IMG/VR virus record: IMGVR_UViG_2778261687_000001
Span: 1 to 19,860 of that record
Origin: a virus
Taxonomy: Duplodnaviria > Heunggongvirae > Uroviricota > Caudoviricetes
Length of the DNA stretch: 19,860 nt
Reading direction: 5' to 3' (one strand)
A program made the position numbers and the translations under genes. How positions within the stretch are numbered: position 1 is the first letter of the stretch; each line of letters starts with the position of its first letter. The notes under the pieces were generated by a model, which made no database searches, was not told where the DNA came from, and saw only the letters and a list, made by a program, of their open reading frames with translations. Below are positions 9,044 to 9,741 of this stretch, piece by piece.

Positions 9044-9343
9044 TTATAAGAAATCGGTTTCATAACTTTGCCCACCATGATAGATACCGACAATAAAGAC
9101 TTTTCTGCTATCAACGGCAAAAGCAATAATCGTTCTGTGGCGGAAATGAGTTACCCGCATCCCCTGGCGAATATCATCGCGTTTATTGCCCCGATGCGGG
9201 AATGTAGAAAACCCATCAAGATAATCAAGAAGCGCATTGGCATAATTGTCAGCAATGACGTTCCCTGCTTTCTCCGTTATATACCTGTGCAGGTTGATTA
9301 TTTGTTGTTCGGCCTCAGGAGTAATGATGACTTCATATGTCAT
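9044..9343 (-). CDS. parE: ParE-family type II toxin, 99 aa
   Basis: Track ORF MTYEVIITPEAEQQIINLHRYI...; start 5 bp after the antitoxin stop. Confidence 0.8.
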   Translation of the reverse strand: MTYEVIITPEAEQQIINLHRYITEKAGNVIADNYANALLDYLDGFSTFPHRGNKRDDIRQGMRVTHFRHRTIIAFAVDSRKVFIVGIYHGGQSYETDFL

Positions 9344-9348
9344 GCAGA

Positions 9349-9606
9349 TTACTTCCCGGATCGAATCGCGGCGCGAACCTGTGAAATGGAGCGTCCGTTG
9401 TTTGGGTTTTCGCGGATAGAATCAAGAGAGGGGGCGGCTGAATGCGTTAACCACGCTTCGATTGCTTTATCGCGCTCATTCAGTGCGCGAAGCCCTTCAC
9501 GAATGACCTCGCTTTCTGAAGCATAGGCACCGGAAGCCACACGGGCGCGCACCATGTCAGCCATTTCGTTAGTTAATGTAATGCTGAATTGTTGGGTTGT
9601 ACGCAT
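9349..9606 (-). CDS. parD: ParD-family (RHH/CopG-like) antitoxin, 85 aa
   Basis: Internal ATG at 9606 with GAGG 8 nt upstream; translation MRTTQQFSITLTNEMADMVRARVASGAYASESEVIREGLRAL... is typical of ParD. Confidence 0.8.
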   Translation of the reverse strand: MRTTQQFSITLTNEMADMVRARVASGAYASESEVIREGLRALNERDKAIEAWLTHSAAPSLDSIRENPNNGRSISQVRAAIRSGK

Positions 9607-9741
9607 GGTAAACCTCACGGAGTAGGATAGAACACCATTCGATGATAGCACGTTGCCTGTTGACGACAACAGAAATCAGAGACAATATTGCCGCACGCCA
9701 GCTTGAACAACTGGCACCTGCTGCGCCAGCAGAGAAAACCG

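Follow-up and report, generated by a model that had tools for sequence, protein, structure and literature searches.

A ParD/ParE cassette inserted backwards into a lambdoid Escherichia coli prophage, with a candidate operator for its antitoxin

Several ParDE toxin–antitoxin pairs have been solved structurally, namely Caulobacter ParDE1 (3KXE), Mesorhizobium opportunistum ParDE3 (5CEG, 6X0A), V. cholerae ParDE2 (7R5A) and M. tuberculosis ParDE1 (8C24). ParD2 of V. cholerae autorepresses through short repeated sites lying over its own promoter (PMC10776004). The DNA analysed here, referred to as the window, is a 19,860-nucleotide stretch of a mosaic lambdoid E. coli prophage. It carries an ordinary type II ParD/ParE pair, inserted backwards into the prophage (Table 1). 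The pair has in common with the solved systems an antitoxin-first bicistron, a ribbon-helix-helix (RHH) ParD with a helical C-terminal part and a ParE fold that opens with a long hairpin of two helices, while identity to the solved proteins is only 10–24% for the toxin (among ParE matches) and 23–36% for the antitoxin. Both genes were already known, being named in RefSeq and in PHROGs, and the module is common in E. coli, with copies in 324–365 of 5,426 complete genomes.

Table 1. Positions of the features discussed, in window coordinates
Feature	Position	Strand	Basis or remark
PaaA2/ParE2-type module	2860–3396		adjacent HTH gene 3363–3770
Small ORF, 27 aa, hydrophobic (MTWPEAFTTVGIAMAVALVVYSICRWG)	8835–8918	+	read from sequence; left end of mobile module
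Hairpin terminator, predicted	8929–8962	.	shared by the small ORF (+) and the parDE operon (−)
parE, 99-aa ParE-class toxin	9044–9343	−	Pfam PF05016, fold, PHROG 5232, RefSeq
parD, 85-aa ribbon-helix-helix antitoxin	9349–9606	−	Pfam, NCBIfam, PDB, PHROG, AF2 model
Best candidate ParD operator	9620–9640	−	reads GAATGGTGTTCTATCCTACTC in parD sense; about 30 bp nearer parD than 9657–9672
Predicted parDE promoter	9642–9669	−	consensus scan; −35 TTGTCG (9669–9664), TG-extended −10 TATCAT (9647–9642)
Palindrome CTGTTG-ACGA-CAACAG	9657–9672	.	−35 regions of two back-to-back promoters overlap here
isrK promoter remnant	9660–9689	+	consensus scan; TTGACG, 18-nt spacer, AATATT

The parD product matched Pfam PF03693 (1.6e-7, 32.1 bits, cut-off 21), TIGR02606 (1.5e-14, 53.8 bits, cut-off 46.2) and PHROG 6494 'antitoxin', and its sequence matches in the PDB were Caulobacter ParD1, V. 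cholerae ParD2 and M. tuberculosis ParD1. In the AF2 model (pLDDT 88.9) an extended N-terminus is followed by helices at residues 13–24, 31–66 and 74–84, and the N-terminal domain can be superposed at 0.9–1.4 Å on the RHH domains of ParD proteins of solved structure. The gene starts at an ATG preceded by a GAGG Shine-Dalgarno sequence at 9613–9616. A 106-aa ORF extended upstream to a TTG codon was rejected as the real gene, because every homologue begins MRTTQQ. The DNA-reading N-terminus MRTTQQFSITL is nearly invariant in this antitoxin subfamily, for which we found neither an experiment nor a solved structure in the literature searched. On plasmids the subfamily was encountered mainly in Rhizobium, Sinorhizobium and Burkholderia, with three E. 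coli records only. The two genes lie 5 nt apart, and a homologous parE directly follows parD in 78 of 80 related loci. Compared with Cronobacter, parD has a dN/dS of 0.05, indicating strong purifying selection, and parE has a dN of 0.27 with dS saturated. The toxin matched Pfam PF05016 (4.5e-10, 40.4 bits, cut-off 23) and PHROG 5232 'toxin' (2.4e-43), and its AF2 model (pLDDT 83.7) begins with a long two-helix hairpin (residues 9–26 and 28–46), as in ParE structures. The C-terminal helices of ParD would wrap and neutralise ParE.

Positions 8833–9689 are a self-contained moron occupying a variable slot of the nin region. The same 857 bp recur in phage ArgO145 near int and antirepressor genes, in a different genomic context, with homology beginning at 8833; at the other end, the match between the window and E. 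coli genomes that lack the cassette, more than 2,500 in number, begins only at about 9691. The slot lies just upstream of a hypothetical-DUF968-RusA-Q block, and is filled by hokD in O157:H7 EC4115 and by another gene in RM11911. The cassette has its own promoter-like site and hairpin terminator and is read on the strand opposite to its neighbours; together with the variable slot and the second context in ArgO145 these are features of a moron, the category in which PHROGs places both families. The pair converges on plus-strand genes at 8443–8838 and 8835–8918 and diverges from a gene at 9742–10014. ORFs, orientation, families and folds thus all agree with an earlier note on this DNA, which had described a ParDE pair inside the nin region, read in the direction opposite to the delayed-early operon. 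The small ORF and the stop codon of the gene before it overlap (ATGA). It differs from its ArgO145 counterpart at two positions, both synonymous, and is preceded by GGAGG in both contexts. PHROG searches gave no match for it, and PADLOC none for the small ORF, parD or parE, so that none of the three belongs to a catalogued defence system. No complete E. coli genome contained at least 80% of the window in one place, and no single reference annotation therefore covers it.

The same note had placed a bidirectional terminator at 8925–8968. A hairpin is indeed present there and could terminate transcription on both strands, but it was not called in a consensus terminator scan. Its arms (8929–8943 and 8948–8962) form a 15-nt inverted repeat that is 87% complementary, flanked by an A-tract (8925–8930) and by a T-rich tract past the stem. 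The predicted folding energy is −17 kcal/mol on the plus strand and −25.7 kcal/mol on the minus strand (z −3.36 and −3.25). On the minus strand the stable stem is followed by U6, and on the plus strand the same stem is followed by an interrupted UUUGAUUUAU. Transcription of parDE would stop at the hairpin, read from 8962 to 8929, and the U6 tract after it. Downstream of parE there are also a promoter-like site (9040–9013), two hairpins and a U-tract. A 3′UTR-derived sRNA in this position was considered, but the region is not kept 3′ of parE in other genera, and it is mentioned here as a side observation only.

In the predicted parDE promoter the TTGTCG and TATCAT elements are separated by a 16-nt spacer. 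A TGnTAtnaT block was kept in 10 of 10 enterobacterial relatives examined, and its distance to TTGTCG ranged from 16 to 20 nt among them, which makes the −35 assignment weak. Transcription would start from the TG-extended −10 element, at a predicted position of about 9635. Between the −10 box and the Shine-Dalgarno sequence, at 9620–9640, lies a half-decayed copy of a palindrome, GAGTAGGATTWAATCCTACTC, that characterises the antitoxin family. With up to three mismatches allowed, TAGGATTnAATCCTA was present 15–35 nt before the ATG in 79 of 80 distant parD loci and, by the same criterion, in 0 of 568 control windows. The family palindrome overlies the parD −10/+1 region in 79 of the 80 loci, and is perfect in, for example, those of Xenorhabdus and Sphingobium; TTG trinucleotides in the distant loci peak 23/24 and 17/18 nt upstream, so that the motif sits on the −10 box. 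A position weight matrix built from 78 distant parD loci was scored over the whole 19.86-kb window, and the two best scores both fell at 9620–9640, the homologous position (13.9 and 10.4 bits), the next best being 7.4. The window copy has mismatches at 4 of 14 core positions, one half-site being intact and the other degenerate, and with 13.9 bits it scores at the low end of the range covered by the training loci (12.9–27.5); binding could accordingly be weak or lost.

Judged from these sequence comparisons, 9620–9640 is the likelier ParD operator, and most likely the site at which ParD or a ParD–ParE complex would autoregulate the operon. It may be regarded as the decayed form of a 21-bp palindrome found together with this ParD subfamily in different phyla. 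The mechanism suggested is that of V. cholerae ParD2, by analogy; the V. cholerae operator has three GGTA boxes, whereas the prophage candidate is a single 21-bp palindrome. A literal search of the literature for the operator sequence returned nothing relevant. The palindrome was also considered as a 5′UTR RNA hairpin. This was rejected because departures from the consensus are mostly one-sided, the left half and the −10 box fall together, symmetry is lost in a common variant (TAGTGTT...), the window copy folds no better than shuffled sequences (z 0.32), and complementarity of the flanks extends beyond 3 bp in only 7 of 79 loci.

On the plus strand the same intergenic region holds the remnant of a divergent promoter. 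In six relatives TTGACG is followed after 17 or 18 nt by TATATT or TATAGT, which lies 6 nt before position 1 of an Rfam isrK match, and isrK is followed by C4 RNA and antirepressor genes. In the window the module junction at 9690 severs the promoter remnant from isrK. Neither isrK nor C4 was detected anywhere in the window at the Rfam gathering threshold or at E values up to 10, and no Rfam RNA family was found in or near the parDE region. The isrK-C4-antirepressor operon, intact in the relatives, was truncated here at the recombination junction. The remnant promoter, from which any plus-strand start would lie near 9696, now points at the gene at 9742–10014 and, beyond it, at the DUF968, RusA and Q genes.

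The earlier note had also proposed a perfect palindrome as the site of ParD autoregulation. The palindrome exists, at 9657–9672 and not at 9655–9670, 2 nt away; its assignment to ParD was not supported. In that model ParD or ParD–ParE would bind over the −35 box and autorepress parDE. In the window the repeat has no mismatch, and the predicted −35 element TTGTCG overlaps it. Its core TGTTG-N4-CAACA is kept in ArgO145 and in Stx2a phages and has one mismatch in Izhakiella, and a pair of RHH dimers could be accommodated by two half-sites of 5–6 bp at a distance of about 10 bp, as in the V. cholerae ParD2 operator (PMC10776004). The region is moreover conserved within the enterobacteria though synonymous sites are saturated, so that some function at 9657–9672 is likely. 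However, when the 84-bp intergenic region was shuffled with its dinucleotides preserved, 11% of the shuffles contained a perfect inverted repeat with arms of 6 bp and a spacer of 0–10 nt, and the window as a whole contains 0.38 such repeats per 84 nt. Among 80 parD loci of the subfamily, which share the ParD DNA-reading strand, 79 lacked the palindrome, and it does not resemble the family half-site TAGGA/TCCTA. In Yersinia, Erwinia and Enterobacter relatives only 2–4 of the 6 pairs are symmetrical, and two Salmonella relatives that lack isrK also lack the GTCGTCAAC core. The part that is conserved, TTGACG, is the −35 hexamer of the divergent isrK/C4/antirepressor promoter. We therefore consider an operator at the palindrome unlikely. 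Much the same holds for an arrangement in which ParD would bind 9620–9640 as its primary site and the palindrome region in addition, co-regulating parDE and the divergent isrK-type remnant. The conservation of both blocks in enterobacterial relatives at saturated synonymous divergence, an ancestral layout with both promoters in one control region of about 90 bp and the documented multi-site operators of V. cholerae ParD2 speak for it. Yet the two blocks have no sequence motif in common, the distance between them ranges over 4 nt among relatives, a variation that speaks against cooperative binding, and the promoter elements already explain the conservation around the palindrome. Most likely the palindrome is incidental, produced by two −35 elements that stand back to back (TTGTCG of parD, TTGACG of isrK-C4-antirepressor), and an experiment built on it would probably test promoter overlap rather than an operator.

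ParE is predicted from its family membership to poison DNA gyrase. The Pfam ParE_toxin family is functionally mixed and includes E. coli RelE and other mRNases (PMC11980606), so that it is the fold ranking and the ParD partner that point to gyrase. A RelE-like ribosome-dependent mRNase, or a toxin with some other target, would fit this heterogeneity, and also the RefSeq label of a 99%-identical gene, which goes no further than 'RelE/ParE family toxin', and the lack of any NCBIfam model matching the toxin. We nevertheless judge this improbable. In a Foldseek search of the PDB with the ParE model the best 23 matches were all ParE-type toxins (TM 0.61–0.73), and RelE, YoeB, YafQ and HigB chains appeared only from rank 24 onward (TM 0.37–0.50, E at least 0.01); the compact RelE/YoeB/YafQ-like fold is thus not the closest, the N-terminal hairpin is typical of ParE, and the partner is a canonical ParD. 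Least probable of all is that the module is a decaying relic, neither regulated nor functional any longer. Apart from the half-lost operator, whose position 2 is polymorphic among near-identical copies, and the truncated neighbouring promoter, such a reading could draw on decay in relatives: a Yersinia prophage has a split parE, and in Stx2a phages the gene has been replaced. Here, however, both ORFs retain their full length, and their products are identical to those of the inducible phage ArgO145; the number of E. coli genomes carrying the module and the purifying selection on parD also stand against decay. The account that we prefer, and consider probable as a whole, is of a ParDE moron in which ParD acts at 9620–9640 and the sequence at 9657–9672 results from the overlap of two promoters.

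The prophage also contains another ParE-superfamily system, separate from parDE, as had been noted before; it adjoins an HTH gene (Table 1). It is a near-identical copy of PaaR2-PaaA2-ParE2 of E. coli O157:H7 cryptic prophages (5CW7/5CZF; PMC8630535), with the HTH gene at the place of PaaR2. That system resembles parDE in being a prophage-borne ParE toxin module, but its antitoxin PaaA2 has no RHH domain; conversely, the antitoxin of the parDE cassette is a ParD, and there is no regulator gene between 9606 and 9690. The two toxins of the window align over 24 residues only (7 of 24 shared, E 0.04); the antitoxins gave no alignment and have neither sequence nor family assignment in common. With the proteins of the two modules unrelated in sequence, the cross-talk between them that the earlier note had raised as a question is unlikely.

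As it stands the locus is of little significance, being one more prophage-borne ParDE module, and the useful outcomes are corrective. They include a defined operator consensus that can be put to the test in a large ParD subfamily not yet characterised, a view of the nin-region slot as a recurrent landing site for toxin–antitoxin morons (hokD, parDE), and a comparison that shows assembly of the cassette from a parDE/isrK-antirepressor unit. A more far-reaching account, which we hold to be possible though doubtful, would combine a portable 21-bp dyad, a decayed half-site and shifted promoter in the prophage, and coupling of the isrK remnant to DUF968-RusA-Q. If it were true, the dyad would have been kept from Proteobacteria to Acidobacteria with no description found in the literature searched, the decayed half-site and upstream-shifted promoter of the E. 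coli prophage copies would perhaps weaken or rewire autorepression, and a truncated isrK promoter firing towards DUF968-RusA-Q could couple the cassette to late-gene control of the prophage.

Among described prophage systems, ParESO-CopASO of Shewanella CP4So (PMC8706911) and PfiT/PfiA of Pseudomonas phage Pf (9W3A) also pair a ParE-class toxin with an RHH-type antitoxin, and PfiT was among the best structural matches of ParE in Foldseek. By analogy, the prophage maintenance or control proposed for these two systems are plausible roles for parDE, although they belong to other hosts, phage types and antitoxin subfamilies. The hok/sok system (hokD) of lambdoid nin regions can occupy the same slot, as noted for EC4115, and in relatives from Erwinia, Cronobacter and Salmonella hokD adjoins parDE. 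It belongs to the type I systems, with an RNA antitoxin and a membrane toxin, and has no homology to parDE. The isrK-orf45-anrP antirepressor locus of Salmonella Gifsy-1 and the control of antirepressors by C4 antisense RNA (PMC4825925; RF01394, RF01695) are the known counterparts of the isrK unit whose promoter stands back-to-back with that of parD in the six relatives; the window keeps the promoter remnant only, isrK, C4 and the antirepressor being absent. The EHEC Stx2a phages phi346 and phi349, which carry an orphan ParD (PMC12502783), have the same parD (about 87% nucleotide identity) and promoter region; in these phages a lipoprotein-like ORF takes over after the first 14 nt or so of parE, whereas the toxin gene of the window is intact.

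The parE-parD pair is an ordinary ParDE moron, correctly recognised in the earlier note; the details added here, a family-wide operator candidate and an isrK-promoter relic, are new but modest. The downstream protein matched Pfam ParE_toxin over the cut-off (4.5e-10), and the upstream protein matched Pfam ParD_antitoxin and NCBIfam TIGR02606, each over its cut-off. Among PDB sequences the antitoxin matched Caulobacter ParD1, V. cholerae ParD2, M. tuberculosis ParD1 and Mesorhizobium ParD, and the toxin weakly matched Mesorhizobium ParE. As the Pfam ParE family also includes RelE-type mRNases (PMC11980606), the toxin structure was modelled (pLDDT 83.7) and compared with the PDB using Foldseek. 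The first 23 matches were all ParE-type toxins (TM 0.61-0.73), including the Mesorhizobium toxin, PfiT, P. aeruginosa ParE, PrpT, M. tuberculosis ParE1/2, V. cholerae ParE2, O157 ParE2 and Caulobacter ParE1; RelE, YoeB, YafQ and HigB ranked after them (TM 0.37-0.50). The ParD model (pLDDT 88.9), with an extended N-terminus, two RHH helices and C-terminal helices, could be superposed to within 0.9-1.4 A on the RHH domains of solved ParD structures. Relative to a Cronobacter copy both genes are under purifying selection (parD, dN/dS 0.05 with dS ~2; parE, dN 0.27 with saturated synonymous sites). From family membership, ParE would poison gyrase and ParD would neutralise it.

Features in and around the module and at the second ParE locus
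Feature	Position	Strand	Basis or detail
PaaA2-type antitoxin and ParE toxin	2860-3396	-	family/PDB match
PaaA2-type antitoxin	3145-3396	-	second toxin-antitoxin locus
HTH gene adjoining second ParE system	3363-3770	-	beside immunity region
Small hydrophobic ORF, 27 aa	8835-8918	+	start codon is the exact left junction of the module
Putative terminator hairpin	8929-8962	both	inverted repeat and RNA fold
parE toxin ORF, 99 aa	9044-9343	-	ORF read and Pfam ParE_toxin match
parD antitoxin ORF, 85 aa from ATG at 9606	9349-9606	-	ORF read and Pfam/NCBIfam matches
Truncated isrK-type promoter TTGACG-18-AATATT	9660-9689	+	TTGACG 9660-9665, AATATT 9684-9689

The parD ATG is preceded by GAGG six nucleotides upstream, and is the true start because all homologues open with MRTTQQ; a TTG-extended ORF of 106 aa was ruled out as a real gene on the same grounds. 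In RefSeq the 99%-identical locus is given a toxin of the RelE/ParE family (WP_000220601.1) and an antitoxin of the ParD family (WP_001260977.1), the ArgO145 phage annotation names toxin and antitoxin, and PHROGs files the pair under these names among morons. Out of 5,426 complete genomes of E. coli, 324 contain at least 80% of a 1,101-bp query covering the module and its flanks (8800-9900), and 365 contain this share or more of its parD-promoter part. A literature search found no experimental paper on the MRTTQQFS(I/V)TL ParD subfamily.

The earlier note had placed a perfect palindrome, CTGTTG-ACGA-CAACAG, at 9655-9670 and proposed it as a ParD autoregulation site. The repeat exists, but lies two bases away, at 9657-9672, and by itself is at chance level: when the 84-bp intergenic region was dinucleotide-shuffled, such a repeat arose in 11% of cases. 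It overlaps both the predicted parD -35 (TTGTCG) and a plus-strand promoter-like site, TTGACG-18-AATATT. The comparison drew on alpha-, beta- and gammaproteobacteria, Acidobacteria and other groups, and covered 80 loci with a ParD relative (53-73% identity). The ParD N-terminal strand MRTTQQFS(I/V)TL is nearly invariant among them, and 78 have a homologous parE downstream. Only one locus (Izhakiella) has anything like the palindrome, each of the remaining 79 showing at least 3 mismatches in 12. By comparison, TAGGATTnAATCCTA was found with at most three mismatches 15-35 nt 5′ of the ATG in 79 of the 80 loci, a level reached by none of 568 control windows. With its semi-conserved flanks this element forms a 21-bp palindrome, GAGTAGGATTWAATCCTACTC, which occurs with this ParD subfamily in different phyla; in a few Acidobacteriaceae loci it is extended, and perfect over 31-35 bp. 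Upstream of the element, TTG trinucleotides are most frequent at 23/24 and 17/18 nt; by this spacing the -10 hexamer falls within the family palindrome. Searching the literature for the literal sequence turned up no account of this palindrome. Arc and other RHH repressors use the same layout, a dyad of 21 bp whose sub-sites are separated by roughly one helical turn. Short repeats across the promoter are also what V. cholerae ParD2 recognises (PMC10776004).

Scanned across the whole window, a PWM built from 78 of the 80 loci, excluding the closest relative, placed both of its top hits at 9620-9640 (13.9 and 10.4 bits, against 7.4 for the next best). In the parD sense this site reads GAATGGTGTTCTATCCTACTC, with a perfect promoter-distal half-site, ATCCTACTC, and a degenerate second half. 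It represents an enterobacterial variant, TAGTGTTCWATCCTA, whose core position 2 is polymorphic among near-identical E. coli prophage copies, about half A and half G in 88 viral-contig copies (IMG/VR). Most of these copies share the nin-region junction of the window. The 9620-9640 site scores among the lowest in the family range, so ParD binding at this candidate operator may be weak. The earlier regulatory interpretation was probably aimed at the wrong element; ParD might still bind at 9657-9672, but nothing supports this.

The origin of the palindrome is suggested by relatives in ArgO145, Stx2a phages, Izhakiella, Yersinia, Erwinia and Cronobacter, where Rfam detects isrK and then C4 antisense RNA, divergent from parD and followed by Ash/AntA/ORF6N antirepressor genes. 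All six carry TTGACG, a 17-18 nt spacer and TATATT or TATAGT 6 nt before isrK position 1, a promoter type studied in Gifsy-1 (PMC4825925). The palindrome of the earlier note is centred on this TTGACG. Towards the isrK spacer, the palindrome arm differs between relatives (CAACAC, CGATAA, CATGGA, CAACGG), so the dyad symmetry is not maintained, and the GTCGTCAAC core is missing altogether from two Salmonella relatives without isrK. In the window the junction at 9690 directly follows AATATT, and an Rfam scan found neither isrK nor C4. Because TTGACG is conserved with isrK, the arm is variable and the window promoter is cut at the junction, the likeliest reading of the palindrome is an overlap between two back-to-back -35 regions, of which one is a relic. 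The remnant now faces the 9742-10014 gene, then DUF968, RusA and Q. Stx2a-converting phages (LC727840, 2194-2960) keep parD, its promoter and isrK/C4. In them a 93-aa lipoprotein-like ORF replaces parE after ~14 nt, beside a HigA-like HTH ORF; this agrees with reported orphan ParD/HigA antitoxins (PMC12502783). A Yersinia prophage has parE split into 42- and 57-aa pieces.

Bidirectional termination beyond parE, as claimed earlier, is plausible. The hairpin is stable on either strand (-17 and -25.7 kcal/mol, z ~-3.3) and is followed by U6 on the parDE strand, but its plus-strand tail is an interrupted T-run and a simple terminator scan missed it. The parE 3′UTR (8925-9043, minus strand) has an sRNA-like layout: a promoter-like TTTACC-16-TAGAAT at 9040-9013, a hairpin at 9006-8982, an AU-rich linker, then the terminator hairpin. 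This stretch is not conserved after parE in the Cronobacter, Erwinia, Salmonella or Enterobacter relatives.

The prophage in the window is lambdoid and mosaic, and its genes run dicB, immunity region (HTH/Cro-like/YdaT genes), replication genes, DUF551, module, hypothetical gene, DUF968, RusA, Q, lysis genes and terminase. Given this order, 'nin region' is a fair label, and parDE indeed runs antiparallel to its neighbours. In ArgO145 the 8833-9689 DNA lies instead between ea22-like genes and the antirepressor, near int, and in more than 2,500 cassette-free E. coli genomes the match begins only at about 9691. The slot is occupied by hokD in O157:H7 EC4115 and by another, unrelated minus-strand gene in RM11911. 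Toxin-antitoxin or other morons recur at this position 5′ of hyp-DUF968-RusA-Q; in other genera parDE adjoins hok/sok, VapBC or Fic genes. The 27-aa ORF, preceded by a strong GGAGG, overlaps the upstream gene's stop (ATGA) in both the window and ArgO145; it belongs to the mobile module common to the two, its two nucleotide differences are synonymous, and the RefSeq relative leaves it without annotation. A tRNA gene lies in the late-regulatory region (14856-14927, plus strand; Rfam tRNA, 51.6 bits), where RM11911 has an annotated tRNA-Gly.

A second, separate ParE system is present, as the earlier note held. Cross-talk, which it raised as a question, is judged unlikely: the two toxins align over 24 residues only (E 0.04) and the antitoxins not at all, which argues against cross-neutralisation. 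The second toxin is a near-identical match to ParE2 of E. coli O157 (PDB 5CW7, E 4e-55), and with its PaaA2-type antitoxin and adjoining HTH gene the locus is of the published paaR2-paaA2-parE2 kind (PMC8630535).
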